Source of the DNA: a virus
Length of the DNA: 64,000 nucleotides
Strand: one strand, 5' to 3'
Virus record (IMG/VR): IMGVR_UViG_3300030090_007212
Coordinates: 64,001 to 128,000 of that record
Shown here: piece after piece, positions 11,029 through 38,485 of the stretch
Layout: every line of letters begins with the position of its first letter
Position numbering within the stretch: the stretch's first letter is position 1
Program-made: the position numbers and the translations under genes
Notes under the pieces: generated by a model
Seen by the model: only the letters and a program-made list of their open reading frames with translations
The model's database searches: none
Told to the model about the DNA's origin: nothing

Positions 11029-11060
11029 TTCTCATATTGATTCTAAAAATTAAACAATAG

Positions 11061-12110: not shown

Positions 12111-12115
12111 AATGC

Positions 12116-13006: not shown

Positions 13007-13042
13007 TTTTCTAATTTTTTATGATTAATTAATTTAATTATT

Positions 13043-13073: not shown

Positions 13074-13076
13074 TAT

Positions 13077-13116
13077 AAAAAAAAACCTATAATGGTTAAA
13101 TTTACACATTATAGGT
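13077..13116 (-). terminator. Intrinsic terminator after the 13143-13886 gene
   Basis: Inverted repeat ACCTATAATG ... CATTATAGGT flanked by an A-run (U-tract on the minus strand). Confidence 0.7.
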
Positions 13117-13142
13117 CAATTAGTCAAATTAAAAAAATAAGT

Positions 13143-13886: not shown

Positions 13887-13891
13887 TTTTT

Positions 13892-14074
13892 TTAAATTAA
13901 TAATTGTCTACCATCTGTAGTTTTATAAACTTTAGTAACTCTTTCTACAATTTCTTTTCCATCATTGATAAAGCACTCTTCACCTACACACTCCTTCTCC
14001 TTTTTTTCATTTAAGAAATCATCCAATTTATCTTCTAAATTTTGTTTTTCCTTTTTTTCTTTTTTATTTTCCAT
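13892..14074 (-). CDS. Small hypothetical protein
   Basis: 60 aa; preceded by a TATTTATA element (14090-14097) and packed against the next gene. Confidence 0.75.
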   Translation of the reverse strand: MENKKEKKEKQNLEDKLDDFLNEKKEKECVGEECFINDGKEIVERVTKVYKTTDGRQLLI

Positions 14075-14102
14075 ATCAATGTCTTTAATTATAAATATTC
14101 TA

Positions 14103-14519
14103 TTATTCAGAAAAATTACGATTAATGTCCATTATTACTAAATTTCCATTTTTTACAATTAACATTTTTCCTTGATATTTATCCCAATCTATTTCATGTT
14201 CTTTATAATTAATATTCCCTTTTTCTAAACCTACTTCAGATTCAATTAACTTATTCAAGGCATTAATTGTGTAAAAACATTCTCCTTTTTTATGTACTAT
14301 AATAGTAGTAGGGAAAAAGGATTTTGTATTGATTTTTTTTCCATCTTTTAAATAAACCCTAAATGTTAATATCTGTTTATCCTGTTCTTCTTCTGATGTG
14401 TAGATGAAAATTTTATCTTCGGGGGTTCTAAACCTTTTTTGTAGATATTTTTTGAAACTTTCTACTTTATCATTAAGGACAAACGAAGCTAGGGTTATTA
14501 TCTTCACTGCATTCTCCAT
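14103..14519 (-). CDS. Hypothetical protein
   Basis: 138 aa ORF overlapping the end of the upstream gene. Confidence 0.75.
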   Translation of the reverse strand: MENAVKIITLASFVLNDKVESFKKYLQKRFRTPEDKIFIYTSEEEQDKQILTFRVYLKDGKKINTKSFFPTTIIVHKKGECFYTINALNKLIESEVGLEKGNINYKEHEIDWDKYQGKMLIVKNGNLVIMDINRNFSE

Positions 14520-15105
14520 ATCTATAAATGTAAGGTAGTATTTTATTATTTTTGTTAGTTTTTGTTATTATACTCTTACATTTATTAAATACTTGATTTC
14601 TGATTAAAAGGCTATCAGTTAATTGGTTGATTTTATTAATTATTTTTTGTTTTTTAATACCTATTAATTCCATAATATTTAAATCAACACCAAAAACGAT
14701 GTTTTCATTATAAATATATAACATATTATTGTCACTTATATATGAAATTGATTTATTAAAACTATTAATTTTATTAATAATTTTTTTAATTTTACTCTTT
14801 TTATCATGAATAGGATCAATATATACATAATTTAAATGATTCCCTATATTACTATAACATAGATTTTTAAATATTATAATATCTTCCTCATATTCAACTT
14901 TTCTTTCTTTTGGTGTGAATGTCCAACATAAATTTTCTTTTATTTGTTTATGTAAAATAGACGCTTCGGATATAGTATCCTTAGTAATATCCCACCCTAT
15001 TATTATTGTGGGTAAATTAGGTATAATATCTTCTATAGTAGTAGATACTTTAAATTCTTTTTCGAATTCTATGGGTTGGTGTGTAACTATATTTCCAATA
15101 ATCAT
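14473..15105 (-). CDS. Hypothetical protein
   Basis: 210 aa; has its own TAnnTTTG promoter just upstream. Confidence 0.75.
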   Translation of the reverse strand: MIIGNIVTHQPIEFEKEFKVSTTIEDIIPNLPTIIIGWDITKDTISEASILHKQIKENLCWTFTPKERKVEYEEDIIIFKNLCYSNIGNHLNYVYIDPIHDKKSKIKKIINKINSFNKSISYISDNNMLYIYNENIVFGVDLNIMELIGIKKQKIINKINQLTDSLLIRNQVFNKCKSIITKTNKNNKILPYIYRYGECSEDNNPSFVCP

Positions 15106-15110
15106 AATTA

Positions 15111-15118
15111 CAAATATA
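15111..15118 (-). promoter_or_regulatory. Bacteroidota-type -7 promoter element (TATATTTG)
   Basis: Plus-strand CAAATATA equals minus-strand TATATTTG, 5 nt before the ATG at 15105; matches TAnnTTTG. Confidence 0.65.
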
Positions 15119-15144
15119 AGAATTTTTTTTTAAAAAGTTAATAC

Positions 15145-20700: not shown

Positions 20701-23700
20701 TTAAGTTAACCCATTAGTTGTATAAGTAAATAATTTATTAGTTTCACTTCCTTTATCATCTTCATATATTGCCAATATTTTAACCTGATTAGGTTTAGAT
20801 TCTAATTTTTTAATAGTATTCCTATTATTTGTCATCAGTGTATCTATCTCATTTAATCTTTGGATTTCATAAGAAGTATTTAAGGACAAACTATCTCTTT
20901 CTGATTGTAATATCCCATTATCAATTTGTAATTGATTTATTCTATCGTAATTTTGTTGATAATTAGAAATATAGGAAGTTAAATCATATTCTTTTTCTTT
21001 TTTATTTTGGGTTTTATTAAGAACGTCTTTAAAATTATTTGGTGTATCTTGTGTCTGTACTTTTACTTTAATTTTTTTATTATCATCTGGAGTGGCAACC
21101 ACTATTTTATTATTATCTTTTTTATTGATATTAATTGTATTATTAGGTGGTGTACCAGTTTCACTACCAGTCTTTTTGGAGTCTTCCTCTTGTTTTACAA
21201 TACCTTCTTGTTTAAGAGAATCAGTAACTTTTAATAATCCTTCAGGTCCTAAAGCATTTTCTTTCATTTGACCTAATTTTAATCCATCTACTATTGTACC
21301 GGTAGACTTATCTACTGAATCTGCCCTAACATCATACATTTCAGTATTTGCGTAAAAATTAAAAGATAATGCATTTTGTAGTCTATTGATTGGGTTTAAT
21401 AAGGAATGTCCCCCTATTAAATCTATAGACATAGTTACATTTGCCATCATAGGTTGTACACCTATACCCGATGGATTCATATCCCATTGTATTCCATTAC
21501 CTGCCTCATACGTAATATTAAGACTATTAATAACTATTTTAGTATGAAAGAAATCTCCAATTCTTAGGATACAAATTGGTGGTCTACCAAATGCTAAATT
21601 TTGTGGTTGTACCGTATCTTTATCATCATATATACTAGGTCCTTGTCTCATACATTGTTGTAAGAAAGTTAATCTAGTATTTAACCCTTCCGGTGTCATA
21701 GAGTGAAAACCAGGATGGAAATATTTTATTTTTTCTGATATAGTAGAAAAATAGTTAGGGAAATTAGCATCAACAAATTCAAAATAACCATTTTCATCAA
21801 TAACTAAACTATCAATAAGTTGTACTTCTTCAGGATAAAACGAAAGGTCACCTAAAGATTGATCTTTATGATTAATATCTTTACCTTTTAACGCATCATT
21901 TTGTACCGTAACCATTACTCTTCTATCACTAGGACTACTAGAAGAAGGTTCACCTTTTCCAATAATTTGTTTACTATAATCCGATGAATTAACTCCAGCA
22001 CTAGTAAGTCCATTATTAATACTTGACCAAACTGCATTTGCTCTTAAAGTACTAATTTGTTGTGAATCTTGTTCATCATCCGATCCCGCAAATCCCTCAA
22101 CAGTAATTTTTACTTTATCTTCACCATTTATAATAGTTTGTATTTTACTTACTACCGAAGCAGTTGAAGAGGGTGTCCATGTATCTGATTCATCAGTATC
22201 GAATTGGAATTCAAAGGTTTCTTTAATAGAGGTTGTATTACTTACTTTTTCTAATTGTATTTCATTATACTTTTTAGTTATTTCGTCTTTTTGATTTTGA
22301 CTAATACTACTATTCTTATCTAAAAATTCTAAAAATTGGGTAGGTGTAATACATCCCGCAAAAAATCTTTCTATTGCATCGGTTCTTTTACCTCTATAAC
22401 CATTAATAACTCTAGGATGATCAACTAATACTTTGAAACTTAATTGACCAGTTCTATTGGTGTTGTTATATGTGAAAACTGGTTCACCTCTTCCAATAAA
22501 GTCTGTTTTATTCCAATTCGCTGCAACACTTTCATCAAATCTTAAATCATAAGGTGGAAACCACATAATTCTTCCTTTATTACCACTTAAAATATCTCCC
22601 GGACCGATTTCATTAAGAGGTAAATCTGCCAAATTATCTGCCCACGCTAAATTTTCTAACGATAACATAAACTTTTTAAATGTAGTTTTAGAATCATCTT
22701 TAGTAGGATGTGTTTTTACAAATCCATTATCATTCAAAACACTTAAAGATGCTTTTTCATTTGTAACCGAAAATCCAGGTAACGTAGGATCTGGCGAAGA
22801 AAATAATCCCGTATTTCTTATAGCATTAAGATAATTGTAATTATCATTAACTGTCCATACTCTACAGAAATTACCATTTGCCTCTGCCTCAATTAAACTA
22901 AATTTACTTATAGCATTTCCTCTACTTATAAGTTTATCTTCTGTTTTGTCTTTAAAATATTTTTTGGTTTGGTTAATCCATACACCATCAGGATGTTCAT
23001 CTACTAATTTTTGTGTTTTATATAATAATGTTTTTTCATTAAAATTAGATTGGTCACCAGTGTTCCAAAAGAATTTTTCATCTACCGTTGTTGTTTTAGT
23101 AGTGTCTGGTGAGTCCAAACCATCTGCCCCATTAAACTCATCACTTTGAAAAACTTGAGTGATTGTTGCCCCTCTATTTGTACTTCTCTCACTACCTATA
23201 TAATATCTACTATTAGTACCTTCTTCTGAAGTTCCTACCATTCTTCTGTCCGTATAATTTGGGACATATAAATTTTGTTGGAAAGATGTTAATAAAAATC
23301 CTACTTGTTGGGCACTAGTTTTTTCTAACAAACTATTCACTCTCGCCTCAGTTGATAAAGAAGGATTAGTATAATTACCTAATTCTGAATTTACTTTTTG
23401 TAATTGAGATGCTATTTGATTATCTTTACTGTTGGAGTTATATTCTTGCCAACCTACCGCATCATTAGATAAAGTGTTAAAATATGATTGTGTCCCATTT
23501 ATACGATTAATATATTCATCTACACCAAATAAACCAGTAGTAATAGAATCAGTTTTATCGGTTTCTACTTGTGCAATTTTATTACTAACAGAAATTTGTA
23601 ATTCTTCACCACCAACTAACCCTAAAGAAGATTCCTTAGTTAAATTTAAATTCTGATATCTATCTATTACCGTATAAGGGTTAACCACACCTTTTTTATC

Positions 23701-24332: not shown

Positions 24333-26282
24333 TTAAGAATCGTAAACTTGTTTTGATGTTATAGTACCACCATTTCTATCTTTTTGATTAATAATGTCTA
24401 CAACCATTTTTCTTAATTCTGGTGCTTTAATGGATGCTATTGCACCTGATGCTCCGGTTATTCTTATTTCCCCATTTAAATTAACGTTAGTAGGTGAGGT
24501 ATTGGTAGATGTATTATTAATTGCTTGATTTAATAATTTGTCAATTACACCACCTTTTTTAGCACCTAATACGTCATCTTGAGATGTAAAACTACTATGT
24601 CTACCATCATTCCTTGATAAAAAATCACTGTCAGTATCCGTTGTATTAGGCATAGGTGAAGTTGTATCTTCTATAGTGGTATTAGGACTAATAACTTTTA
24701 AGTCACCGGTTACTTTATCTATTGTAATAGTCTGAGGATTATTAATATCTATTGCTGACCCGCTTAATAAATCTACTATGTTGTTTATTGATTTAGACAT
24801 TTCATCGTCAAATACTGCACCTTGACTAAACATTTTTTCCATTTGTTCTGCCAAAAGGCTTTGATCGAAACTTTCTTTTATTTTTTCTAAACTAGTGGTA
24901 AGAGCAGAATTCAAAGAGGATATAGTTTTAACAGAAGACTCCTCCATTTGTCTATACACATCGATATCTTTAACAAATCCCAATTCAAATGCTTTTTCCA
25001 TATTCTGCAATCTTTGATTTGTAGTCTGTGCTTCATATAACATTGATCCCATATAATCCTCTTCGTTTTGAGGTGCTTTCAATATCATTTCTGCATGACC
25101 ACTTGTTAAATCTTCTAACGCCTTAGTTTGTTTTTCACCATTTTCATCCACAAAATCTACTACCATTTGTCCATCTTGCATTCTCGCCATATTACCAATA
25201 CCCTCCATTTCTTCATCAGTAAACATCCCTTTACTTGATAATAATGTTTTAGCATCATTTAATTTGGCTGTTTGACGAGCCATTTCAGTCATTTTTTGAA
25301 CATCAATACCTAATTGATCACCTGCGGATTTTAATTGCATTCTGGCTTCTGCGGGTAATTCATATTCACCTGTTACCTCATTAAATTGTAACATGTTTTC
25401 TGTCATATCCGACAACCTTTTTGCTAATTCTTCTGGTTTATTTCGGGCTAAATACATAGTTTCGAAAGGATCACCAAACGCTTCTGCTATATCTCCCCCT
25501 AACATTTGTAAATTCGCTGCTGCCTCAATTGCTGCTTCAGGTTGGTAAAATTTATCTGCCATTCCAATAACATCGGCAATATCCAATCTCATTTTAACTG
25601 CTTGTTTTGCCATTTCAGTCATACCTTTAACTCCATTAGCAAAAGAATATGACTGGAGAGAATTCATATTTTTTGATAATTCTTTCATCACTTTAGACGA
25701 ATTTAACCCTATTTTCTGTGACGAAATAACTACATCTTCCATACTTTTACTTGCGGATTCATTAGAAATACCCATCATTTCTAACGTTTCAAATAATTGA
25801 GCACTTTCTGTACCCATAAGATTAGTTGCTGCACCTAATTTATAGATATTTGCTACCTCTTCTTCACCTAAAATTCTTACTCTACCAGAAGAATCTGCAA
25901 AATCTTGATAGATAGCTTGCACATCTCCCATATCACCACCAAACTCTTTTATAATTGCAGCAGCACCTTTAAATTGGGTACTTAAATCTGCCGTGCGGTG
26001 TACAGATAAACCTATACTTATGGAAGTTTCTTTATATTTTTCCGCTAATTGTTCAGCTAACTTATATTGTCTACCGGTGTCGTAGGTAAACTCTTTCATA
26101 CTTTTCACCATACTAGACACCGTATCTTTATAGTCTTTTAGAATATTTTTACTCTTACCAATATTAGAACTGAAGTTTTCCGCCTCTCTATTAAGGTTTT
26201 TCATATCAACCCTTAACTGATCGATTTCGGCTCTTAAAATTTTTATCTGTTCATCAGGTGGTAAAGTATCAAATGCTGCCAT
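24333..26282 (-). CDS. Tail tape measure protein
   Basis: 649 aa, helical, A/M/Q/E-rich; lies between the tail chaperone genes and the baseplate genes. Confidence 0.75.
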   Translation of the reverse strand: MAAFDTLPPDEQIKILRAEIDQLRVDMKNLNREAENFSSNIGKSKNILKDYKDTVSSMVKSMKEFTYDTGRQYKLAEQLAEKYKETSISIGLSVHRTADLSTQFKGAAAIIKEFGGDMGDVQAIYQDFADSSGRVRILGEEEVANIYKLGAATNLMGTESAQLFETLEMMGISNESASKSMEDVVISSQKIGLNSSKVMKELSKNMNSLQSYSFANGVKGMTEMAKQAVKMRLDIADVIGMADKFYQPEAAIEAAANLQMLGGDIAEAFGDPFETMYLARNKPEELAKRLSDMTENMLQFNEVTGEYELPAEARMQLKSAGDQLGIDVQKMTEMARQTAKLNDAKTLLSSKGMFTDEEMEGIGNMARMQDGQMVVDFVDENGEKQTKALEDLTSGHAEMILKAPQNEEDYMGSMLYEAQTTNQRLQNMEKAFELGFVKDIDVYRQMEESSVKTISSLNSALTTSLEKIKESFDQSLLAEQMEKMFSQGAVFDDEMSKSINNIVDLLSGSAIDINNPQTITIDKVTGDLKVISPNTTIEDTTSPMPNTTDTDSDFLSRNDGRHSSFTSQDDVLGAKKGGVIDKLLNQAINNTSTNTSPTNVNLNGEIRITGASGAIASIKAPELRKMVVDIINQKDRNGGTITSKQVYDS

Positions 26283-26911: not shown

Positions 26912-27121
26912 TTAATCTTCTTTAGGTGTTAAATAATTTATATAATATCTACGGATATGGGTAGACATCATCATAGTGTCAGAATACGAAAATCCTTTAT
27001 GAACTAAAAATAATTGTTCATTTAATAAATTTTGGTAGTAATGTTTAGATTTCAGGATACCAAAAATTCCTTCCCAATCTAAGAAAGCAACCAACGGACC
27101 CTCCCCCCTGAGTCCGAGCAT
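26912..27121 (-). CDS. Probable frameshift extension (gpT-like) of the tail assembly chaperone
   Basis: Overlaps the end of 27045-27815 in the +1/-2 frame; C-terminal 'LVHKGFSYSDTMMMSTHIRRYY' resembles GT-type chaperone tails; upstream of the tape measure gene. Confidence 0.6.
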   Translation of the reverse strand: MLGLRGEGPLVAFLDWEGIFGILKSKHYYQNLLNEQLFLVHKGFSYSDTMMMSTHIRRYYINYLTPKED

Positions 27122-27815
27122 TAGTTTCTAAATTTATTCCCGGTTCTATTTCCCCAATATATTTATTAAACTTTCGTATTTCTATAAGGTTTAATGTTTT
27201 CAATATATGAGATATTTTCATTTTATCTCTTTCCCCATCTATCTCCATAATAGAACGTTCTAATCTTAATGTAGTATTAGTAGAAATACCCCCATTCTTT
27301 TCTTTTTGTTTTTGATCGATATTTTCTATTTCTTTTTCGTCTTTATGAGTTAGTAATCTAAACTTAATTTTTTTATTAGTTTTAGTAAAAATATAATCAA
27401 ATTCCCCTTTTTCATCAGGTTTAACATTTAAATTTTTCATTTTAAGTTCACTTAAATCTATAATTCCTTCTACTAAATTTCTATCTTCATCAAAAACAGT
27501 TTGGTAGTATTCATTACCTAATCCTGTAGTCCTTAAAAATAATAAAATTGCCATTCTATCCCCACTTAATAGTTCATCATGATCAAAACCCAATTCTTTT
27601 ACTTTCCTTTCTATTAAAACATCTAATGCTTTACCATTAGATAAAAGATTAGGGGAAGTTAAAATATTTTCATCATAAGCAGTCATATATTCTACCTTAA
27701 CTGACGATTTTTTATTCTTATATAAAAGACCTTGAGAAGGTAAATCTATAACATCAAAAGGGACTTTATATTCTTCCGGAACATAATTCGGATCAACAAA
27801 CATTTTCTTTTCCAT
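27045..27815 (-). CDS. Tail/baseplate hub assembly chaperone (T4 gp26-like)
   Basis: 256 aa; 'IDLPSQGLLY', 'YMTAYDENILTS', 'GDRMAILLFLR', 'IKFRLLT', ending 'NFWYPEI'. Confidence 0.8.
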   Translation of the reverse strand: MEKKMFVDPNYVPEEYKVPFDVIDLPSQGLLYKNKKSSVKVEYMTAYDENILTSPNLLSNGKALDVLIERKVKELGFDHDELLSGDRMAILLFLRTTGLGNEYYQTVFDEDRNLVEGIIDLSELKMKNLNVKPDEKGEFDYIFTKTNKKIKFRLLTHKDEKEIENIDQKQKEKNGGISTNTTLRLERSIMEIDGERDKMKISHILKTLNLIEIRKFNKYIGEIEPGINLETNARTQGGGSVGCFLRLGRNFWYPEI

Positions 27816-27860: not shown

Positions 27861-29453
27861 TTACCAATTTCTAGTATTATCTATTACCTCAATGTTAACC
27901 TCTTCTACTTTTTGATTTTTGATACATTCTGCCTTTGCGTTTTCGATTGCACTTTTCCAATTTTCCCCCTGCTCTCCAGACAGACTCATCATACCATCAA
28001 AAACCTTTTCAGAATCTCTTTTATAACCAGTAATTTGTTCGTCACTGAGACCGGGCGTATTAATTATAATCTGTTGAATTTCTGCTGTCTCTTCCTCAAT
28101 TACCCCCATACTCATTGCTGATAGTATTTGAGAATCAGTTTTATCATTAATATTTTTGCAGTTAATTATGGGATGTTGACCACTAGCAATCTTCTCAAAA
28201 TTACTTATTGTTTTCTTAATTACGTTAGATTTTGCAGTCGCTAAATTATACTTATTATCTGTTGCCCTTTCTAAAGCATCATTAAGACCTTTCATTGCTT
28301 CTTCGGCTACCTCCTTAGCATCGGGCATAAATTTGGCGAAAATATTTGCCCATTCATCAAACACTGCTCTGACAGGATTTTGCCCTTTTCTGGCTGCATC
28401 AATTCCGATGTATGCTGAATACAAACCTGCCGGAATTACTACAATTCTCATAATATAAAAGGGAAGTAGACCTGCATAATCACTATAAGGATATTTTAAA
28501 TAAGCTTTAAAAGGCCCTGTAATAGCACTTTTTGTACCACTCCAGATTTTTTGCAGTCTGGTTTTTTCTTCGATATCTGGCATATCATCTATTTTTTCTT
28601 TTATTTTATCAACATTTACACCTGTACCCTCTATAGGTCCTTTAGGATTATTCTGTATATTGATGTTCTCAACATGTGCACCCTCTTGAATAATAAAAAC
28701 ATTACTCCCCTCACTCTGCACTTTATTGGCTTCATTAGCAATAGCTGTCATATTTTCCTCTGTGGCTACTACAGTTTTACCATCTAATTCATCTAAAGAT
28801 TTACCTTTGGGGTCAACTACCTCATCTACTTTAGGTTTAGTAGGTTCAACCTCCCTCTTCTTAGGATCTACATTTTCAAATTCACCTTTTTCATTTTTCT
28901 TGTATTGATCAACTTTACCAGTTCCATCAGTTTTAGTTATTAATATTTCATCACCTACTTTTTCCACTTCTATTTTGGTAGGATTCATTTCTATTACTTT
29001 TGACCCACCTAAAGCTTCACTGTATAATTCTACTACAGTTTCTCTCATTCCACCTTCGGTGGGTACATCTTTAAGGGCCGCTATAAAAGCATCTTTATCC
29101 ACATTTTTTAACTGACCAGTATTTGCCATATAATCTAAACTTTTAATAAAACTATTTACCTTCACTAAATCTACAGCTGCCGGTACAAGTTGTTTCCAAA
29201 CATTAGGAAATTCATCAATATGTTTACTTAAATCGTCAAAAGTACCTATTTTAAAATTTAAATAATCAGTAAGAATTTTAGGATCAATAGTTTTTAGCCC
29301 AGCAGTAAATGCTCTCTTTAATGATTGAAATGGCCTTCTCTGTTCGTGTAACATAGAGGTATTTTTTACTAGATTACCATATAATCTCTCTTCTGAAAAT
29401 AGGGATTTCATTCTTGAAATCTCTTCATTTAATGTTTTTATTTTATTTTTCAT
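27861..29453 (-). CDS. Leader-bearing protein with a shared ~150 aa module and a membrane-segment C-terminal region
   Basis: 530 aa; leader ending LHEQ; residues ~37-186 are paralogous to 33905-35221; hydrophobic segment GLLPFYIMRIVVIPAGLYSAYIGI. Confidence 0.8.
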   Translation of the reverse strand: MKNKIKTLNEEISRMKSLFSEERLYGNLVKNTSMLHEQRRPFQSLKRAFTAGLKTIDPKILTDYLNFKIGTFDDLSKHIDEFPNVWKQLVPAAVDLVKVNSFIKSLDYMANTGQLKNVDKDAFIAALKDVPTEGGMRETVVELYSEALGGSKVIEMNPTKIEVEKVGDEILITKTDGTGKVDQYKKNEKGEFENVDPKKREVEPTKPKVDEVVDPKGKSLDELDGKTVVATEENMTAIANEANKVQSEGSNVFIIQEGAHVENINIQNNPKGPIEGTGVNVDKIKEKIDDMPDIEEKTRLQKIWSGTKSAITGPFKAYLKYPYSDYAGLLPFYIMRIVVIPAGLYSAYIGIDAARKGQNPVRAVFDEWANIFAKFMPDAKEVAEEAMKGLNDALERATDNKYNLATAKSNVIKKTISNFEKIASGQHPIINCKNINDKTDSQILSAMSMGVIEEETAEIQQIIINTPGLSDEQITGYKRDSEKVFDGMMSLSGEQGENWKSAIENAKAECIKNQKVEEVNIEVIDNTRNW

Positions 29454-29462
29454 CTTTTTTTT

Positions 29463-30104
29463 TTAATATCCTAAATCTGCTTTAGTTAACACGTGGTTAG
29501 TATTTCTTAACTCAGAAATTTTAACTAAAGGGTTACCTGAATTATCTAAAATCATAAAATCATCTCCTAATGTTTTAGTATCTATTCTTTTAGGGTTGTC
29601 GGTAGAATATACACCAGAATAAGTGAGATTTTTATAATTCAATATTATATTTGAGGGGTCACTATCATCACATTCAAATTTACCATCATATTGGACTTGA
29701 GCAAATTCTTTAGTACCATTTACTGCTTTTTGTAAAACACTTAAGGTATCAATATAAGTCATTCTCCCATTATCCCAAAAAGTGTAATTCATATCAGGAT
29801 AATTTCTTCCCTTATGTGTAATGTTACCAACAGAATGCATTAAATAACAATTTCCTACACCAGAATGTTTTTTAATAGTTATATTATTACTATCAATACC
29901 CTGTTGTGTCATCCATTTCTTAACGCATTGTAAAAAAGGTTTATTTTCACATCCTGCACTCGATGTTCTTTGTTCACTTTTATTATAAACTACATAACCC
30001 GCCTTCTCTAATTGTTTCTCACAATCCGCATGAGATTGTTCATTTAGACCCATTAAATGTCTTATCTGATTTATTTCGGTTATAATATTTTTTTTATTCT
30101 TCAT
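29463..30104 (-). CDS. Leader-bearing hypothetical protein
   Basis: 213 aa; begins MKNKKNIITEINQIRHLMGLNEQ. Confidence 0.8.
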   Translation of the reverse strand: MKNKKNIITEINQIRHLMGLNEQSHADCEKQLEKAGYVVYNKSEQRTSSAGCENKPFLQCVKKWMTQQGIDSNNITIKKHSGVGNCYLMHSVGNITHKGRNYPDMNYTFWDNGRMTYIDTLSVLQKAVNGTKEFAQVQYDGKFECDDSDPSNIILNYKNLTYSGVYSTDNPKRIDTKTLGDDFMILDNSGNPLVKISELRNTNHVLTKADLGY

Positions 30105-30255
30105 CTTTTTCTATAATGTTTAAAATCCTTTCAAATTCCTTAATATCCTCATTAATAAATATATCTTGTTCTGAATTAAAACCATATTCTATAATATAAT
30201 TCTTATATTTATCCAGTTTTTCTTTTATTTCAATTAGAGTTATGTTATTTTCCAT
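30094..30255 (-). CDS. Small hypothetical protein (53 aa)
   Basis: MENNITLIEIKEKLDKYKNYIIEYGFNSEQDIFINEDIKEFERILNIIEKDEE; fills the gap between its neighbours; translated by hand. Confidence 0.55.
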   Translation of the reverse strand: MENNITLIEIKEKLDKYKNYIIEYGFNSEQDIFINEDIKEFERILNIIEKDEE

Positions 30256-30259
30256 TATG

Positions 30260-32437
30260 TTAAGGTACTTTATATTTTTCCAAAAAATTATCTATACCCT
30301 CTTCACCTGGTGGATTAGGAGCATTCATTACTTCTACATCAATATTGTCAGGAATATAAACTACTCTTTTACCATCTTCTTTTTCATCAGTGGATTTTTC
30401 ATCACTTTTATGTTTATAAATCGTATCTTTTTTATAATCAGATTTTAGCTCATATCTTTTTTTATAGGTGTCTGTTTGAAATTCTGCAGGTACTTTATTA
30501 AAATCATTCATTGTAGGTTGTTGTTTATTTTGTATGAACTTTTTATCATAAGGTCTCCACCCACTTTTCCACGCTTTAGTTAATAAAATATTATCATCAC
30601 GAGACTTTTCCATAGTAAAATTAGGGTCAGTATTTAAAATAGAACCAAAAATTTGTTTAGTTTGGTTCCAATCGTAACCCTCAACCTCAACGCGATTTTT
30701 AATAGAAGGATGTAATTTATATTTACCTTCTCTATATATTAAACCCACCCATTCTTGAACTTCAGGTAATTGTAAAATTTCTTGTACCCCCACAAATGCA
30801 CCTATTTGAATTAAAAATTCCTTATATAATGGTCTCTTTAGATATTTATTGAGTGTAACTAATACATCACCATTGTTTGCCTTTAATGCGTCTTGCCAAT
30901 CCTTATTTTTAAATATTTCTTGTAAAGAAAATGAATGTTTTTTCCTAACTGTGTTTTCTGCTTTTTCTAAATATTTAGTATAAGTTTTTAATAAATCCGG
31001 TTCAATCTTATTAAAAGTTTTTATTAAATCATGAGCCATTAAAATTTCACTATCTGTCATTTTAAATTTATTGGCTGCATCAGCATAAATTTTTGTCAAT
31101 TTATTTTTATCTTTTATACTTTTTAGGTTTTTAACCGCCCCAAATTCTTTCTTTGTTTTATCTACTACTTCCCCCATATACTTATAAATCTTAGGATTGG
31201 CACTTGCTTTTCTAATATTATTCATACTTTTCATACCACCACCAGCCATACCCCCACCTAATGTTAATATACCAGCAAATATTGCAGCAGTGCGTTCTGC
31301 ACCTGTTTCTGCATTAAAAGCTTCTACACCATAAGCAGTGGCATTAATTGCATCTAACCCAAAACTTATTGCGACCCCATAGACAGGGATTGCTAATGCC
31401 GCAATAGATAATAAATCTAATACACAATGATAATCTTCCGTACATTTACCTAAATAATCTACCACTCCCTCAAAAAATCCTGGGGCATTTTCTTTTTTAT
31501 AGTCTTTAAATTGTTTTGTCCACCCTAATAAATCTTGTTTACTAAAATTTCCATGTTGGGTTAAATATCCATCGTTATGACTTGTTTCGTTTATGCACCC
31601 ACACATATGTCCTGCCTGTGTATTATAAACAAATACTCCCTTTTCTGTTGGATTCCCACAAAATGTCCAAGGACTTTCACTTATATCTTGATAATATACG
31701 TGATACCAACCCCTGGATGTATATCTATTATCTTTAGGTTTCCCATAATATACTTTGTTTTGGGGTCCGGGGGAACCAATTTTTGCTTGTTGTTGACGTG
31801 CTCGTTTTGCCCCCTCATTATCACTACCATAATACTGTATTATCCATTGTTTATCAGAAGTTTTCGTACAATATTGAGATATAAGGTTTTTTTGATCTCT
31901 AATAGTTCGATTCCAGTCTTGCGCCATTATATAATTCTTCCACAATTCCTGTTGATTCATATTATAATCAGATTGTGACAGTTGTTTATAATAGTTATTT
32001 TGTTTTATATACGTACTTAATCCGCCTGTTTCAGTATCTACCGGAATAGAGGGATTATAATCTGCGATTGGGAAGTCATCCACCTCATTATCGTAATTAT
32101 AAGGATGATCTTCTAAAGATTGACCGGGAGGTATTAATTTCTCAAGAATTTCATCGGGTATTAAATTATGACCTGTTTTAGAATTTGGTGCACCCCATAA
32201 TGCCCATTGTCCTTGTGCTCGTTTATATGCACCTTCTGGTGTTGAGTATGCCAATTGTTGGGTAAGACGATTAAATTCCTGTGCCTTATATCGGTCATAT
32301 GAATCCTTATCAAAACCAGATTGATTTTTTTTATAATTATCTACATTATGTGCACCATAAAATGTACCATCCTCAGCAGTATATTGTTCAGTTAAAAAAA
32401 TACGTTTATATTGATTTTCAGTAATACGAAGCTTCAT
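30260..32437 (-). CDS. Leader-bearing protein with a pre-toxin-TG-like hydrophobic hairpin
   Basis: The likely start is 32437 (MKLRITENQYKRIFLTEQ), because the track's longer start lies within a terminator/promoter region. Central segment 'HCVLDLLSIAALAIPVYGVAISFGLDAINATAYGVE'. Confidence 0.8.
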   Translation of the reverse strand: MKLRITENQYKRIFLTEQYTAEDGTFYGAHNVDNYKKNQSGFDKDSYDRYKAQEFNRLTQQLAYSTPEGAYKRAQGQWALWGAPNSKTGHNLIPDEILEKLIPPGQSLEDHPYNYDNEVDDFPIADYNPSIPVDTETGGLSTYIKQNNYYKQLSQSDYNMNQQELWKNYIMAQDWNRTIRDQKNLISQYCTKTSDKQWIIQYYGSDNEGAKRARQQQAKIGSPGPQNKVYYGKPKDNRYTSRGWYHVYYQDISESPWTFCGNPTEKGVFVYNTQAGHMCGCINETSHNDGYLTQHGNFSKQDLLGWTKQFKDYKKENAPGFFEGVVDYLGKCTEDYHCVLDLLSIAALAIPVYGVAISFGLDAINATAYGVEAFNAETGAERTAAIFAGILTLGGGMAGGGMKSMNNIRKASANPKIYKYMGEVVDKTKKEFGAVKNLKSIKDKNKLTKIYADAANKFKMTDSEILMAHDLIKTFNKIEPDLLKTYTKYLEKAENTVRKKHSFSLQEIFKNKDWQDALKANNGDVLVTLNKYLKRPLYKEFLIQIGAFVGVQEILQLPEVQEWVGLIYREGKYKLHPSIKNRVEVEGYDWNQTKQIFGSILNTDPNFTMEKSRDDNILLTKAWKSGWRPYDKKFIQNKQQPTMNDFNKVPAEFQTDTYKKRYELKSDYKKDTIYKHKSDEKSTDEKEDGKRVVYIPDNIDVEVMNAPNPPGEEGIDNFLEKYKVP

Positions 32438-32475
32438 AATTAAATTTATATATAAATAAATATCTATAGGCATAG

Positions 32476-32498
32476 AAAAAGCCACTACAAAGTGGCTT
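32476..32498 (-). terminator. Intrinsic terminator after the tail tube gene
   Basis: AAGCCACT-acaa-AGTGGCTT stem with an adjacent A-run. Confidence 0.75.
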
Positions 32499-32530
32499 AA
32501 TCAATATCTTTATATGGAGATTTAAATCTC

Positions 32531-33019
32531 TTAGAATACGTTGATTGCTCTATCGAACCTCAATGTACATGTGATATCCGCCAAGTCACTAGAAGAATAA
32601 TCCAACCCACCGAAATCTGCGTCGTTAAGTTGAGTTCCTTGAAGAATCCATTTTTGTACTACAACACCTGTAGGATCTAACATTTCTAATTCAACGTCTT
32701 TTTTGTATCCTGCTGCGTAACCTTGTCTACCTGTTACTGATTCAGAGTGAAGTCTTACCCACTCCATTAATGCTTGTGTTGCCGAAGGACCGATTGGATC
32801 TCTAAAGGTAACTGAAATAGTTTCCCATCTAAATCTACCAATAACAAAAGTCTCCGTATTTAAGAAAGGTATTGATACCTCATCACTTGTATATTTTGGT
32901 CGACTTGCTGTAGAAATCCACCATTCTTGAATACCTAATTCATCAGGAAATCTAAGAATCCATCTATTCTTTCTTAATGGTTCGTAAGGAACCGGCATTC
33001 TCATTAATAAATCTGCCAT
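32531..33019 (-). CDS. Tail tube protein (T4 gp19-like)
   Basis: 162 aa; 'EPLRKNRWILRF', 'GRFRWETISVTFRD', 'WILQG', 'DFGGLDY', 'TLRFD'. Confidence 0.9.
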   Translation of the reverse strand: MADLLMRMPVPYEPLRKNRWILRFPDELGIQEWWISTASRPKYTSDEVSIPFLNTETFVIGRFRWETISVTFRDPIGPSATQALMEWVRLHSESVTGRQGYAAGYKKDVELEMLDPTGVVVQKWILQGTQLNDADFGGLDYSSSDLADITCTLRFDRAINVF

Positions 33020-33082
33020 TGTTTTATTTTTTTAATATTGTTTTATTCTTTAATTATAAATATTCGACTTTTAAAAAAAAGT

Positions 33083-33901
33083 TTACTTTTTAACGATAAT
33101 TCTTTTTTTCTTAGGGTTTTCAGGATCAGAAGTATCATATACTAAAAATCTAACATCAGGATATAAACCTTTTAAGGTTTCTTGTATATATCTTTCTGCA
33201 GTTTCCACATTACCTAAATCATCATCACTAAATCCTATACTAATACCCGTATATTCAGGATCGTCTTTTATTTTATCTACTGCCTTTACTACTCTATCTA
33301 CAAAACTCTTTAACGCTAATGTTTTTGCAATTTCAGGTTCGGTAGAAGTAGACTCTATCCCAAACTTTTCCATAAATTCATCAGAAGATACAGGATAATA
33401 ATCTTGTAAATTAAGATATTGATCAATTGATACCCCATGAAGGTTGGCAATCATTTGTCCTCTCTCCTCTTCTGTTAAAATGGTATCTATTATTATCTTT
33501 ATTGCGTCTTTTATTGCCTTTGGAGGATTTCCCCTTGCCGTTATAATAGAGAAATCACTTCCATAGGATAATGCTTCCTTAAATTTATCAAAACTAGGGC
33601 CAAACGCTTGTTTTCTTAATGCTTCATTAGTATCTTTTATAAAAGAATCGTAAGATCTAAAATCTTTAAAAGATTTCATAGGGTCATTATCTACATATCT
33701 ATATAATTTTCCCATTTCTTTACGTACTTCCCTAAATTCTTCTGTAGATACGGAAATAGGTACCCACCCTTTACCCACTCTTTTCTCCAAATATATCTGA
33801 GTAGGCATAAATAAAATATTATCATCCCAATCAAAAGAATATGCTCTTTTTTGGAATTCTAAAAGAAGTTTTTGTTGATATTTTGTTAATCTCAGTTTCA
33901 T
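33083..33901 (-). CDS. HAD-superfamily phosphatase-like protein with an LxE leader
   Basis: 272 aa; motif I 'FDWDDNI', motif II 'IITARG', Lys in 'EIAK', motif IV 'FSDDDLGN'. Confidence 0.8.
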   Translation of the reverse strand: MKLRLTKYQQKLLLEFQKRAYSFDWDDNILFMPTQIYLEKRVGKGWVPISVSTEEFREVRKEMGKLYRYVDNDPMKSFKDFRSYDSFIKDTNEALRKQAFGPSFDKFKEALSYGSDFSIITARGNPPKAIKDAIKIIIDTILTEEERGQMIANLHGVSIDQYLNLQDYYPVSSDEFMEKFGIESTSTEPEIAKTLALKSFVDRVVKAVDKIKDDPEYTGISIGFSDDDLGNVETAERYIQETLKGLYPDVRFLVYDTSDPENPKKKRIIVKK

Positions 33902-33904
33902 TTT

Positions 33905-35221
33905 TTAATGGTTATTTTTCAAATATTCTCTAAAATTATAGATACCATAATTCTCAAAACCTCCTCTGGAAATCATATTATAATTATTACTTTTAATCGC
34001 ATCATTAATAAAAATATCATATTCCTCTACACTTTTAGCGTTTACTATTTTACTCCAATCAATTTCACTTGTATCCCCAAATTTAGTAGAAAGGTAATTT
34101 ATAGGTATAGTTTTAGTTACTTTATTATTACTAAATAAATCCTCAACATCGTTTGGTTTATATGATCCACCAGAATTTTTATTATAATATTGATTATAAT
34201 GTTCCCAATCTCTGAATCCACCGTTAGGGGGTGCACCAATTAACTCGTTTCTATAATGAATTTGAGGTGTAATCATTTTATCTCCCATTATATTACCACC
34301 TTTATTATTATATCCTTGAATTGCAGACTTAATATCTGATAACATCGCACCCTGTTGGTTTTTATCAATTACCGACTTAGGTATATAAATGGTGGCCCCT
34401 TGTTTACCATGTTGAGGTGTGCCGGGTTTCATCTTAACATGATTGACTTGTTCTAACCCACCTACTTTTCCATGTGCACCATATTTTTTAGATACCGGAG
34501 TTAACCTCTCTATTAAAAAGGCAGAATCTTCTAAAGTAGAACCAAATATATGAAATTTCCACCCACTATGGTTAGGCCACTCCACTTTAGATCCAAATTC
34601 TATCCAACCTCTTTCATTTGGATTACCATATTTATAAAGTATGTTAAGAGAATCTTCAATAACACTATTATCAAGTTCTTTTGTTATTGGTAAAAAATTA
34701 GTATTTTTATGTTTTTTATATTGTTTAACCTCATTACCTTTAATTGTGGTAATAATTACTTCATCACCTACCTTTTCCACTTCTATTTTGTAAGGTTTTA
34801 TTTCCCTTACTTTTCCTAGTCGCGATTCATCAAATAGTTCTACTACAGTTTCTCTCATTCCACCTTCTGTTGGAATATCCACCAAAGCCTTAATAAAGTC
34901 TTCAATTTCCACATTTTTTAACTTACCCCTCTTTGCCATATAATCTAAACTTTTAATGAAACTATTTACCTTAACTAAATCTACACTTGCCGGTATAAGT
35001 TGCTTCCAAACCCCTGCGAATTCATCAATATGTTTACTTAAATCATTAAAATTAGTGATTTTAAAATTTAAATAATTAGTAAGAATTTTAGGGTCAATAG
35101 TTTTTAACCCAGCAGTAAATGCTCTCTTTAATGATTGTAATGGTCTTCTTTGTTCCGTTAGAATTCCACCACCATTTTCACATAAAAAATTAAATTGACT
35201 TTCACTAATTATTATCTTCAT
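33905..35221 (-). CDS. Leader-bearing protein with the shared module and an OspF/SpvC-like phosphothreonine lyase domain
   Basis: 438 aa; motifs GWKFHI, GKV, GKQGATIY, GD and YRNEL occur in the order seen in OspF/SpvC and LanL/LanKC lyase domains. Confidence 0.72.
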   Translation of the reverse strand: MKIIISESQFNFLCENGGGILTEQRRPLQSLKRAFTAGLKTIDPKILTNYLNFKITNFNDLSKHIDEFAGVWKQLIPASVDLVKVNSFIKSLDYMAKRGKLKNVEIEDFIKALVDIPTEGGMRETVVELFDESRLGKVREIKPYKIEVEKVGDEVIITTIKGNEVKQYKKHKNTNFLPITKELDNSVIEDSLNILYKYGNPNERGWIEFGSKVEWPNHSGWKFHIFGSTLEDSAFLIERLTPVSKKYGAHGKVGGLEQVNHVKMKPGTPQHGKQGATIYIPKSVIDKNQQGAMLSDIKSAIQGYNNKGGNIMGDKMITPQIHYRNELIGAPPNGGFRDWEHYNQYYNKNSGGSYKPNDVEDLFSNNKVTKTIPINYLSTKFGDTSEIDWSKIVNAKSVEEYDIFINDAIKSNNYNMISRGGFENYGIYNFREYLKNNH

Positions 35222-35244: not shown

Positions 35245-35268
35245 AAAAAAACCCACATAAGTGGGTTT
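35245..35268 (-). terminator. Intrinsic terminator
   Basis: AAACCCAC-ataa-GTGGGTTT stem with a 7-A run. Confidence 0.8.
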
Positions 35269-35291: not shown

Positions 35292-35615
35292 TTAATAATT
35301 AGGTATTTTTTCATCCATAGGATATCTACCACTACTTGGCATACATTTTGCCCCACATTCTAATAATTTAGGTCCAATTATAAATGCATCTGTCATATCT
35401 ACACCTTCTAATAATGCTGCAATATCACTCATAGAAGGAGCTTCCATTTCCATTAACATTGCCGCTATTTTCATTGCTTTTGCACTATATTTAGGCCCTA
35501 ATGCGTCTTCCACACAAGAAACACATACTGGAGATGGTTCAATACTTTGCTCTACCAATACTCTTTTAACGATTTTTTGTAAATCCGATTCTTTTAATTT
35601 AATTACTTTTTTCAT
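35292..35615 (-). CDS. Small leader-bearing protein with two Cys pairs
   Basis: 107 aa; begins MKKVIKLKESDLQKIVKRVLVEQ; contains CVSC and CGAKC. Confidence 0.8.
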   Translation of the reverse strand: MKKVIKLKESDLQKIVKRVLVEQSIEPSPVCVSCVEDALGPKYSAKAMKIAAMLMEMEAPSMSDIAALLEGVDMTDAFIIGPKLLECGAKCMPSSGRYPMDEKIPNY

Positions 35616-35665: not shown

Positions 35666-38485
35666 TTAAATATCATCAAAAGATGCACCAGTATTAGTAA
35701 TATTGAATTCTATGCTGATGTATTCTAATGTTCTAGTTGGTTTAATAAAGATTCTACCATTCAACTCATTTCTATCAATTGATTCTGGTGTATCATCTAA
35801 TACCACTCTAAAGTCAGTTAAACCTCTTTCTTTACGGATATTATCCAAAATTGGGTTAACTAATGAAAGGAATTGATTTCTTACAACCTCATCATTTTGT
35901 TCAAATAACAATCTGATAGAAACTGCAGATATAAGTTTTCTTGCTTGAAGTAAAAGTCTTCTAACATTAATTCTATTAAGTGCTGTTTCTTTTTGTTGTA
36001 ATGTTTTATTACCCCAAATTACTACTCCCACATCTGAGAATGTTGCCATTGGGTTAATCATACCTTCATAAAGAGTATCTCTTTGGTCTAAAGTCAATTT
36101 TAATCTCGCTTTAATTGCGTTTGTTGTACCTCTATTTAAACCTGCTGCTGCAAACCAAGGAAATGCAACGTTATCTGTTAATGCAATGTTTCTAACAACC
36201 TCTAATGTTGGTGGTAACCATACATATTGGTTATTTTCTGTATCATTCATCTGTAACCACGGCCAGTAAGTGGCAGAATAGTTACTGTCGATTCCTGCAT
36301 CTGCGATTAAATCAACCGCTTCTTCTGGATCAATTGCTTGTCCATCACTATCAGTATCCGGTGTAGTTAGGATATAAAGTGAATCCGCTCTATCAACTTC
36401 TACAACATCAATTGCATTTTCAATCAATCCTGTTTGATCTCTTACATCCAACCCTGGAGTTGCGAATACATTTATATTAACCGCTTCAGGATTATTGAAT
36501 GTGTATAAACCATCTAAGAATGCGTAATAATCAGAAGTGATTCCTTCATCTCCTTCACTTGTTACAAATGTTTGGAAAGTTCCTGCCAATAATCCTGCCG
36601 CACCATTAGTTCCAGCTTTTGTATAAGAATCTCCGTTAGTTCTTTCGGTTCTATATTCATCCCATCCATCATAACCACCAAATGGTGCAAATGTGAATTT
36701 TCTTGCCGCTAATTTTTCATAAGGACCACTAGTTACTGAAGCGTTACTCGTAAATGCCGATACACCTACTTGAAGTGCTGGGAAGTAACTATCAGCACCT
36801 GCCGATATTTCTGCTCCTTCTGCATTTACATCCATATGGAAACCATCTGTTCTTCCAGTATAAACACCATCATTAACTGCGTTTCTACCTTTATAATCGA
36901 AGTAATCTTGATCTACCCCTATAGAACTATTTAAACCTAAGTAAGTTTTTCTAAGTCTTGCAGTAGTTAATTGTCCGTATGCCGTCTTATATTCAATTTG
37001 TGGTGGTAAAGAAGTTCTTGTACCAATGTATTCCCTATTTAATACTCCCTCAAATCCTGCAGGGAAAGCATTGTGTGGGAAATCATCTGCCAATTCTACC
37101 ATCACATATTCACTACGTAATGGATATTCACCATCCGTAGTACCAATTTTTCTACCAATAAATCCATTATCTGTTGGATCCATTGTAATTTTTGAAAATT
37201 TCTCTACAGTTTGAATATTAGAATCTGTATCATTGAATTTTCTTACCAATAAATCAAATGTTCTTTCATCAGGTTTAATATTAACAATAGAGAATTTAAT
37301 GTCTTCATTCGCTGCGTTACCATCAGATATTGTAACGAATCTAAATAATCTTTGTAATACATTACCTCGTAGTTCTGATAATACATAAGGAGATGATGCA
37401 GATTTCCATTGTTCTTCATAATCATCTAAATTATTAGTGTCAGTAGATAATATTTCATTGAAAGTAATATCTAAACCTCTTACTTTACCTGCACTATTTA
37501 AATCATCTAATGTATTATAGTATAATTCCTCTACCCATAATTCAGTTTCTTTATCCTGTGTCTTACTACCGAATAAACCTGCAATATAGTTAGTTTTTGT
37601 TTTATCTAAAGATGTATCATAACTAAATGTGTTACCCGCTGCCGTTGTACCTGTAATTGTAAACGATGCGAATGGATTAGTAACGATATCATCAGTATTT
37701 GTCATTTCAGTTGCAGTAACCGTATAATCTAAGATTTGGTCACCACCATAGTCACCTCTAGATCTTAATGTTGCAACAACACTACCATCAATACTTGAAT
37801 CACAAGTTGCACTATATGTAACCACCGTACCTGATGTTACACCAGTAATTCCACCTGCAACACTTGATCCGATGGAAATAACCTCCATATCAAATGTTCT
37901 ACCTGTAAAATCACACCCTACTTTAATATACGCTGGATCATCTATTGAGAAATCATCACCTACAGTTGCATTACCAATATTAGTAAATGTAGAAGATATC
38001 TCCCCATCATCATATAAGTCTTGTAAACCACTACTAGCGTCAAATGTCATAGTAACTGGTGTACCACCTGTGGTTGCACTAAACGTTAATAACGGATCAT
38101 AAGAAGTAGTATCTGTTATACTTACTGTATCCGCATCAGGATTAGAGTCTAATGTAATACTCCACGCACTACCTGCCTTATAACCTGAATACCCCAATAC
38201 TCTACTTACATATAATTGGTTAGTTTGTGTAAGAAATGATTTTGCAATGTAATTTAATTCATATTTGTGAAAACCAGAACCTTTAAATTTCTCAGAATTC
38301 AAACCACCAAAATAATTCATGAATTCATTATAGTTTGAAATAAAGACTGGTTCAAATGCTGGCCCTTTCGGAGTTTCACCTACTAATCCTAATGTAGTGA
38401 CTCCTACTTGTCTTGTTACAAATGTTAAATCCTTTTCTGAGGTGAATACCCCCGGACTAACAAAAATTCTATCTGTCGATGCCAT
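35666..38485 (-). CDS. Contractile tail sheath protein (T4 gp18-like)
   Basis: 939 aa; 'FVSPGVFTSEKD', 'GETPKGPAFEP', 'YWPW', 'PWFAAAGLNRG', 'WGNKTL', 'RINVRRLL', 'IKPTRTLEYI'. Confidence 0.96.
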   Translation of the reverse strand: MASTDRIFVSPGVFTSEKDLTFVTRQVGVTTLGLVGETPKGPAFEPVFISNYNEFMNYFGGLNSEKFKGSGFHKYELNYIAKSFLTQTNQLYVSRVLGYSGYKAGSAWSITLDSNPDADTVSITDTTSYDPLLTFSATTGGTPVTMTFDASSGLQDLYDDGEISSTFTNIGNATVGDDFSIDDPAYIKVGCDFTGRTFDMEVISIGSSVAGGITGVTSGTVVTYSATCDSSIDGSVVATLRSRGDYGGDQILDYTVTATEMTNTDDIVTNPFASFTITGTTAAGNTFSYDTSLDKTKTNYIAGLFGSKTQDKETELWVEELYYNTLDDLNSAGKVRGLDITFNEILSTDTNNLDDYEEQWKSASSPYVLSELRGNVLQRLFRFVTISDGNAANEDIKFSIVNIKPDERTFDLLVRKFNDTDSNIQTVEKFSKITMDPTDNGFIGRKIGTTDGEYPLRSEYVMVELADDFPHNAFPAGFEGVLNREYIGTRTSLPPQIEYKTAYGQLTTARLRKTYLGLNSSIGVDQDYFDYKGRNAVNDGVYTGRTDGFHMDVNAEGAEISAGADSYFPALQVGVSAFTSNASVTSGPYEKLAARKFTFAPFGGYDGWDEYRTERTNGDSYTKAGTNGAAGLLAGTFQTFVTSEGDEGITSDYYAFLDGLYTFNNPEAVNINVFATPGLDVRDQTGLIENAIDVVEVDRADSLYILTTPDTDSDGQAIDPEEAVDLIADAGIDSNYSATYWPWLQMNDTENNQYVWLPPTLEVVRNIALTDNVAFPWFAAAGLNRGTTNAIKARLKLTLDQRDTLYEGMINPMATFSDVGVVIWGNKTLQQKETALNRINVRRLLLQARKLISAVSIRLLFEQNDEVVRNQFLSLVNPILDNIRKERGLTDFRVVLDDTPESIDRNELNGRIFIKPTRTLEYISIEFNITNTGASFDDI

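Follow-up and report, generated by a model that had tools for sequence, protein, structure and literature searches.

The paralogous pair and its module family

The window, a stretch of 64,000 nucleotides (nt) covering positions 64,001 to 128,000 of the IMG/VR virus record IMGVR_UViG_3300030090_007212, contains a myovirus tail cluster in which orf107, orf438, orf272, orf725, orf53, orf213 and orf530 sit between backbone genes. Two of these genes, orf530 and orf438, encode paralogous proteins that share an internal module of about 150 amino acids (aa) and form the subject of this analysis. The window is part of a 138.5 kilobase (kb) record estimated to be 42% complete, has a G+C content of ~30% and carries almost every gene on the minus strand, and its phage is a Flavobacteriia-type marine myovirus of the ~330 kb class, from a group known only from metagenomes. 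The parts of the two genes are as follows.

27861-29453, minus strand: orf530
29346..29453, minus strand: orf530 leader, type A, aa 1-36, with the LNEEISRMKSLFSEERLYGNLV helix motif and a spacer ending M-L-H-E
28896..29345, minus strand: orf530 module copy, aa 37-186
27861..28895, minus strand: orf530 C-terminal region (class-1 tail), with a charged linker, a weak hydrophobic segment and a Cys-containing end
33905-35221, minus strand: orf438
35156..35221, minus strand: orf438 leader, type B, aa 1-22, MKIIISESQFNFL...G-I-L-T-E, then Q (...ILTEQ)
34712..35155, minus strand: orf438 module copy, aa 23-170, predicted helical bundle and three-strand beta meander
34043..34669, minus strand: orf438 predicted phospho-Ser/Thr-lyase-like domain, aa ~185-393
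33905..34042, minus strand: orf438 C-terminal helical extension, aa 394-438, and stop codon, kept with the lyase domain in homologues

The two proteins align by BLASTP over a single significant segment (178 aa, 66% identity, E 8e-72), beyond which nothing had an E below 4, and a codon-level comparison of the module gave 76% aa and 81% nt identity, bearing out the claim of the initial annotation that the copies are similar in both protein and DNA. The borders it had placed at EQ and QYKK were also recovered, as nt identity in sliding windows was 0.36-0.62 over the leaders, reached 0.84-0.96 from the sliding window starting at aa 35 of orf530, with a sharp onset at the E-Q dipeptide, and dropped to about 0.6 past QYKK. 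The leaders are unrelated and belong to two subtypes, as had been noticed, that of orf530 reading MKNKIKTLNEEISRMKSLFSEERLYGNLV...LHEQ (type A) and that of orf438 being of type B. The C-termini are likewise unrelated and not diverged homologues of each other, since in a profile-profile alignment the orf530 class and lyase proteins lacking the module shared only 20 leader columns.

The continuation of orf438 into a lyase-like domain agrees with structural modelling. In a model based on 49 sequences (mean predicted local distance difference test score, pLDDT, 83.6) the leader is poorly defined and the C-terminal domain well-defined, the latter matching the lyase domain of the class III lanthipeptide synthetase CuvL with a VIA-align Z of 12.5 (root mean square deviation 3.4, 161 aligned) and chains of the SpvC, OspF, VirA and HopAI1-type phosphothreonine lyases with Z 7.8-9.5. 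The top 23 rows of this comparison were all lyases or lyase domains (Z 12.5-7.8), with the next fold at Z 5.5, and Foldseek also matched the domain to a lyase (probability about 1, E 1.3e-4). The motifs GWKFH, K..GG, GKxG, YIP, GD and HYR are invariant across 18 homologues of the lyase-like domain. No Pfam match to orf438 was obtained at E <= 0.1 and a profile search of PDB sequences gave no lyase; as modelled, the payload of orf438 has a phosphoserine/threonine-lyase fold. The lyase-type domain occurs behind many N-terminal regions, most of which lack a recognisable module and almost all of which bear a leader, and a literature search found no relevant work linking phosphothreonine lyase to bacteriophage virions.

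The proposed continuation of the other copy into a membrane-segment region stood only in part. A hydrophobic stretch does exist in orf530 (aa 326-351, Kyte-Doolittle 1.5-1.6), lying ~140 aa past the module, but it is weak, includes an Arg and is sub-threshold in most homologues in a hydrophobicity scan. Two cysteines of this region, C432 and C510, are invariant in alignment A8.

Module proteins were collected by a full HMMER scan of 1.84 billion representatives at E <= 0.001, which gave 40 proteins, the module being found at 25-50% identity across the family; P0009 and P0039, repeat proteins matched in many stretches, were dropped. The module is present in 42 of 73 collected proteins, the window's two included, mostly behind a leader, and starts at about residues 23-63 in rows with an N-terminal leader, the short leaderless or signal-peptide rows differing in this respect. 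Single linkage at E <= 1e-4 placed the 33 module proteins with tails of at least 60 aa in six unrelated classes of 15, 10, 5, 1, 1 and 1 members, comprising the orf530 type (15/33), a second long type, the lyase type and the tails of P0013, P0012 and P0008. The P0013 tail has DUF5122 beta-propeller repeats (E 3e-52), and by eye the P0012 tail has an HExxH motif and the P0008 tail a Nudix-like motif; besides DUF5122 in P0013, a Pfam search with ten homologues gave only sub-threshold matches. A further nine module proteins are module-only or short forms. One relative, L008, encodes at 106-3096 a 996 aa protein in which leader and module are fused to a C-terminal domain like orf272 (53% identity to orf272 residues 8-272), so that orf272 itself is used as a payload in that relative. 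With six tail classes and this fusion, homologues are not confined to the two C-termini of the window, and the initially described architecture of leader, conserved module and variable C-terminus extends to the family.

In the orf438 model the module forms a helix bundle at about aa 30-135 followed by three strands at 145-170, and the module modelled alone gave the same picture (pLDDT 80.4). Fold searches returned a best VIA-align Z of 4.3 among 48,161 chains, with none at Z 5, and a best BFVD match at E 0.085, and two ESM Atlas look-ups gave scores of at most 0.80 and no named family. COMMD-like fold rows, with probability 0.11-0.23, were rejected. On these models the module combines a bundle of helices with a sheet of three strands and matches no known fold. 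A complex prediction of two module copies (score 0.00, mark 0.32) is evidence neither way.

Concerted evolution of the module

Three genomes, those of the window, L004 and L008, have two module genes each. Module identity within them is 76% (window), 81% (L004) and 69% (L008), against 28-49% between genomes. A maximum-likelihood tree was built with 28 modules, L009 and L010 being left out because of weak module alignments; in it the window pair are sisters (98/92), as are the L004 pair (100/99), and the L008 pair falls within one clade with P0006 (86/77). The leader-B genes of the window and L004 occupy the same position and have lyase domains that are 72% alike, and their modules do not group together in the tree. 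Payload classes are mixed on the tree, the propeller protein P0013 being sister to P0015 of the orf530 class (96/88).

The proportion of differing silent sites (pS) in the window pair is 0.38 for the whole module, 0.26 for its first half and 0.48 for its second half, and within the other genomes it is 0.21 (L004 pair) and 0.40 (L008 pair). Between genomes, pS is 0.48-0.60 for the tube, sheath and orf272 genes and 0.60-0.65 for module counterparts. As silent-site divergence within genomes is below the between-genome level, the copies have exchanged DNA since the phage lineages split. Between genomes, pN is 0.36 for the module, compared with 0.15 for the lyase domain of the same gene and 0.13 for the sheath.

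Individual homologues are mosaics. Compared with orf438, P0016 has a 77% identical leader and a 96% identical lyase domain around a module of 31% identity that shares about 50% with leader-A proteins from a different subtype, and P0074 has an identical leader (100%), a module of 91% overall that holds two patches identical to orf530, and a lyase domain of only 75%. P0045 combines leader B with the lyase domain and has no module. An old duplication, with the module kept by purifying selection alone and without DNA exchange, would fit a module conserved enough for 25-50% identity across the family, but in three genomes the paralogs are closer to each other than to their counterparts, silent sites are less diverged within a genome than those of backbone genes between genomes, and P0074 carries orf530-type patches inside an orf438-type gene; this explanation was rejected as highly improbable.

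Recombination at the module borders, as the initial annotation had it, is borne out by the mosaics P0016 and P0074, the tree and the silent sites, although the stronger signal is homogenisation within genomes. Judged from these sequence comparisons, module copies in one genome are homogenised by DNA exchange, that is, by concerted evolution through gene conversion, and it is the within-genome homogenisation of a module diverging fast between genomes that is new here. Modular architecture together with gene conversion, taken alone, is very probable.

Leaders, related phages and possible routes into the virion

In alignment A4, leader A has the invariant residues R14, K16, S17, L18, F19, R23, L24, Y25, G26, N27 and E37, and its motif heads many unrelated proteins in related loci. 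Type B leaders are also found on orf725, orf272 and orf107, on the open reading frame (ORF) at 21119-22351 of the genome and in related loci, leaders of type A or B together being present on orf530, orf213, orf438, orf725, orf272, orf107 and further ORFs of the genome. Leaders occur on diverse proteins in 27 of 31 related loci by motif scan, and in 8 loci mapped gene by gene. Outside the window, the ORFs at record coordinates 21119-22351, 29240-29773 and 28199-28459 have leader-like N-termini that end in hydrophobic-x-E-Q/A (MRLIVKESQYKSIIREQ; ...RKVLTEQ; ...HIIKEA).

The leaders end in [LIV][LIV]-x-E/Q, where the slash marks the junction with the module, and the T4 protease motif likewise has a hydrophobic-x-Glu form. 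Counted over the rows of alignment A3 with at least 15 residues upstream of the module, position P1 is E in 36/36, P3 is I/L/V in 35/36, P4 is L/I/V in 33/36 and P1' is Q in 29/36. Among the 121 non-overlapping ORFs of the genome, residues 9-50 contain the junction motif 8 times where 1.7 would be expected (P 4e-4), and an earlier hydrophobic-x-Glu lies inside both leader types (T-L-N-E, I-I-S-E). A literature search found the leader motif as text in no publication, and literature on jumbo phages, Flavobacteri and prohead-protease propeptides, judged largely by title and abstract opening, does not describe these leaders.

The other genes and signals of the cluster are as follows.

35666..38485, minus strand: tail sheath gene (backbone), 75-79% identity over its full length in 5/5 related records
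35292..35615, minus strand: orf107, type B leader MKKVIKLKESDLQKIVKRVLVEQ on a small Cys-containing protein
35249..35268, minus strand: terminator-like hairpin just upstream of orf438, followed by the ATATTTAT motif ~10 nt before the ATG
33083..33901, minus strand: orf272, conserved backbone gene with a type B-like leader (MKLRLTKYQQKLLLEF), 61-72% identity in 5/8 related loci
32531..33019, minus strand: tail tube gene (backbone), PHROG 4542 (E 4.8e-23), 91-98% identical in relatives
30260..32437, minus strand: orf725 (741 aa if the listed GTG start is used), type B leader MKLRITENQYKRIFLTEQ, large, with a hydrophobic Gly/Ala-rich stretch
29463..30104, minus strand: orf213, type A-like leader (ITEINQIRHLMGLNEQ) and a Cys-containing domain, homologues at the same position in 5/8 related loci
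27045-27815: hub-like gene orf256, PHROG 150 (E 1.4e-4), next after orf530
24333-26282: tape-measure-sized gene, 649 aa, name based on its location and size and on homologues (29-55%) in the equivalent location of relatives
26891, 27837, 30155, 32456, 33056, 35227 and 38528, plus strand: ATAAATAT starts upstream of orf155, orf256, orf213, orf725, tube, orf438 and sheath

No significant Pfam and no informative PHROG match was found for orf107, orf438, orf272, orf725, orf213 or orf530. Near its N-terminus orf272 has FDWDDNIL, by eye a HAD-type phosphatase-like motif without a Pfam match. Leaderless homologues of orf272 are present in phage records of 630-735 kb, among them L042 (LR745206.1, 634 kb), where the homologue has no type B leader and neighbouring ORFs at 9944-19328 share another N-terminal motif (M..KKFNQF, KKYNQF, KRFNKF, KRFNES), which may represent another leader family of huge phages.

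At the DNA level, the only matches among GenBank phages were to the tube gene of Flavobacterium phage 'immuto' and to 120 bases, within orf272, from a single huge-phage record. The relatives are in IMG/VR, where five records have a sheath 75-79% identical to that of the window over its full length, and the stretch or parts of it were found in runs of 11 studies, the RNA runs X19 and X20 having small shares (0.10 and 0.06). The eight related loci mapped gene by gene keep the tube (91-98%) and, where the locus reaches, the sheath (74-79%), hub-like and tape-measure genes, with orf272 in 5/8, and the sets of genes lying in between vary in size and content, nearly all of their members starting with a type A or B leader. 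In L020 (3796-7163) tandem paralogs in the sheath-tube slot show further leader types (MKKLIRKILREEINKS three times, MIRRPWETKRNLILESN twice).

G003 and G004, two of the five related records, encode Peptidase_S77, the family of the T4 prohead protease (E 5e-27 and 9e-27), with a gene for a Gp23-type capsid protein beside it. The G003 capsid protein (L037 1297-3048) has ...ASALLTE/ATDAG (A-L-L-T-E/A) before its conserved core, which is the same kind of site as the ends of the cargo leaders. A highly acidic repeat protein, likely a scaffold, is encoded in G003 between the protease and capsid genes. G003 also has a ribosomal protein S21 gene (L043, 179275-179433, E 2e-14), a trait that passages of PMC9723584 report for Bacteroidetes phages up to 331 kb, and this gene in a close relative links the group to the 'bS21 phages' of Bacteroidetes.

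Taken as a whole, the statement that orf530 and orf438 are leader-bearing cargo, namely modular, gene-converted, capsid-targeted and protease-trimmed ejection proteins, is given slightly better than even prospects. The cargo genes form a large set and occupy the variable positions separating the conserved genes for sheath, tube and tape measure. Each encodes a protein in three parts (a type A or B leader, in this family the ~150 aa module, and a protein-specific payload), and these parts recombine independently. By analogy with T4, the leaders would act like capsid-targeting sequences carrying the proteins into the prohead core, and a T4-type (S77) prohead protease would cut after the Glu of the leader. 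The module would then become the N-terminal domain of a mature protein that is packaged within virions and enters the host along with the DNA, its role being, as a best guess, that of a common docking or handling domain fitting one phage-specific partner. The leaders are read as capsid-targeting propeptides because of the junction motif, the T4 precedent and the G003 capsid site.

Several observations speak against this reading of the pair as capsid-targeted cargo. GenBank phages have no homologue of orf438, orf530 or orf725, the group is known from sequence alone, without an isolate or virion proteome, three of the five related records lack a prohead protease or capsid gene, and no prohead protease or head genes were found in the window's own 138.5 kb record, which is ~42% complete. 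The leaders, at 22-36 aa, are strongly conserved and longer than the 10-residue targeting sequence of T4, and the genes bearing them are in the tail cluster, not the head cluster. The first ~8 module residues have low confidence in the models, and homogenisation could be neutral gene conversion without functional meaning.

The short forms also count against it. In six of the nine short module proteins a signal peptide ending in Cys, lipoprotein-like by eye, replaces the leader, and P0020, P0027, P0035, P0038, P0041, P0042 and L034 5875-6381 combine a signal peptide with only the helical part of the module. One of these, P0020, is 75% identical to the leader-A protein P0026, the L-I-T-E-A junction included; as a prohead protease would be out of reach of lipoprotein-type forms, these residues may be part of the module itself. 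Lipoprotein and envelope genes surround one signal-peptide form (L034), which is encoded on a contig of 400 kb from a Flavobacteriales genome. Three of 301 sampled Flavobacteriales genomes matched the signal-peptide form, the only full-length match being in the source genome of L034 and the other two covering only the signal-peptide part of the profile, and a cluster look-up gave only short contigs. No relative of P0020 was found in IMG/VR.

These copies have a place in another reading, in which the module would be a phage-specific 'address' domain, the same allele on all cargo docking with one fast-evolving partner and lipoprotein-type copies serving as decoys. The partner would be a packaging or ejection component of the phage or a target in the host envelope, selection and not only neutral conversion would keep the copies alike while alleles diversify between phages, and the rare copies with a signal peptide, of which one is chromosomal in a Flavobacteriales genome, would keep out cargo arriving with the same allele. 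This proposal is regarded as unlikely.

The position of the genes bears on a second alternative, modelled on the N-terminal cargo signals of extracellular contractile injection systems, in which the leaders would attach the proteins to the tail or load them into it (tube lumen, baseplate or tape-measure complex) and E-Q would be no protease site. Every leader-bearing gene examined, in the window as in 8/8 related loci, is placed between genes for sheath, tube, hub-like protein and tape measure, the lipoprotein-signal forms retain the junction residues, and the ATATTTAT motif is common to the regions upstream of sheath, tube, orf438, orf725, orf256 and orf155. This motif, found on the gene strand 10-45 nt upstream of these genes and of orf213, may be a late promoter element, but it has no window-wide enrichment (35 matches vs 25.6 +/- 5.3; 5/100 shuffles reach 35); terminator-like sites number 12, compared with 4.3 +/- 2.4 in shuffles. 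Gene position does not dictate virion location, the nearly invariant junction matches the motif of a protease family encoded by close relatives, and the G003 capsid protein bears the same L-L-T-E/A type of site. Signals of extracellular contractile injection systems are not known to be cleaved. This explanation is considered doubtful.

The core of leader A (LNEEINRMKSLFGE type, e.g. window 29380-29430) aligned with an engineered GCN4 zipper segment, IENEIARIKKLIGE, at E 0.13-1, which is not significant, and weak coiled-coil chimeras (E 0.13 and above) were the only matches to leader A in a profile search of PDB sequences; the weak alignment suggests a short coiled-coil-forming helix. A resemblance of leader A to short coiled-coil heptads would suit a third alternative, in which the proteins are virion or assembly accessories that are not delivered, the leaders binding a chaperone or scaffold and the paralogs being ordinary structural decorations, with recombination between two neighbouring direct repeats as the sole cause of module homogenisation. 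The lack of any Pfam or PHROG match for orf530 and orf438 is in keeping with this, as is the fact that gene conversion requires no selection. The payloads, however, include an enzyme fold typical of effectors, a beta-propeller and, by eye, HExxH and Nudix-like motifs, and phages with 74-79% sheath and 91-98% tube identity differ greatly in slot content, a pattern better suited to accessory or host-directed genes than to structural ones. An accessory role without delivery accordingly has a low probability.

Relation to known systems

The group is widespread in marine and freshwater environments and infects Flavobacteriia-type hosts. If the leaders are capsid-targeting signals, these phages would carry a large, rapidly reshuffled arsenal of delivered proteins, an effector-type lyase included, which the leaders would allow to be listed by sequence alone; the leaders could also tag foreign proteins for loading into phage particles, as the T4 targeting sequence does. 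The homogenised, fast-diverging module offers a clear and testable case of concerted evolution in phage accessory proteins and points to a partner that all cargo must fit.

The initial annotation had compared the pair to polymorphic toxins, systems that Zhang and Aravind reportedly classified. The likeness lies in layout only, as both have a trafficking part, a conserved region, a variable C-terminal domain and recombination at domain borders. It does not extend to function, since toxicity is not indicated and neither a dedicated immunity gene nor a secretion system is evident. The gene downstream of orf438 is orf272, a backbone gene that is also present in relatives without the lyase gene (L027, L022, L013) and whose WapI match is below the cut-off (14.7 vs 27 bits, E 0.037), and export by a bacterial secretion system is not indicated for genes in a phage tail cluster, in the window and 8 related loci. 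Unlike in polymorphic toxins, the conserved region is the part that diverges fastest between genomes (pN 0.36 vs 0.15 for the lyase domain).

The payload of orf438 resembles OspF, SpvC, HopAI1 and the lyases of class III lanthipeptide synthetases in its predicted fold (Z 12.5 to 7.8) and in conserved motifs containing Lys, His and Arg. It differs from them in having no family match at the sequence level and in lying behind a leader and a module in a gene of a phage structural region.

The ejection and inner-body paralogs of phiKZ, 201phi2-1 and SPN3US are comparable in that these are large phages with many processed head proteins, whose paralogs have N-terminal propeptides in common, which according to passages of PMC5694885 often have several Glu-ending sites in giant phages. 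Their protease, in contrast, is S80 with the motif A/S/G-x-E, fold searches gave no sequence or fold similarity of the module to phiKZ-type ejection proteins, and the portions of PMC5694885 available here describe no concerted evolution of a post-propeptide module.

In T4, as described in parts of PMC9026906, PMC5694885 and PMC3012670, 10-residue N-terminal capsid-targeting sequences on unrelated internal proteins lead to prohead uptake, the protease cuts after Glu, residues 8 and 10 of the targeting sequence govern processing and 'LIE-9' conforms to the cleavage logo. The present leaders have two to three times that length, comprise at least two families and belong to genes in the tail cluster, and they are followed by a conserved 150 aa module that is homogenised within a genome, in cargo known here from genes alone. 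As with the T4 internal proteins IPI, IPII, IPIII and Alt, a short conserved leader stands on unrelated, fast-changing proteins and ends in hydrophobic-x-Glu, the kind cut by T4-type prohead proteases, a family that close relatives of the phage encode. The closest known kind is thus the T4 system of capsid-targeting sequences and internal proteins, not polymorphic toxins.

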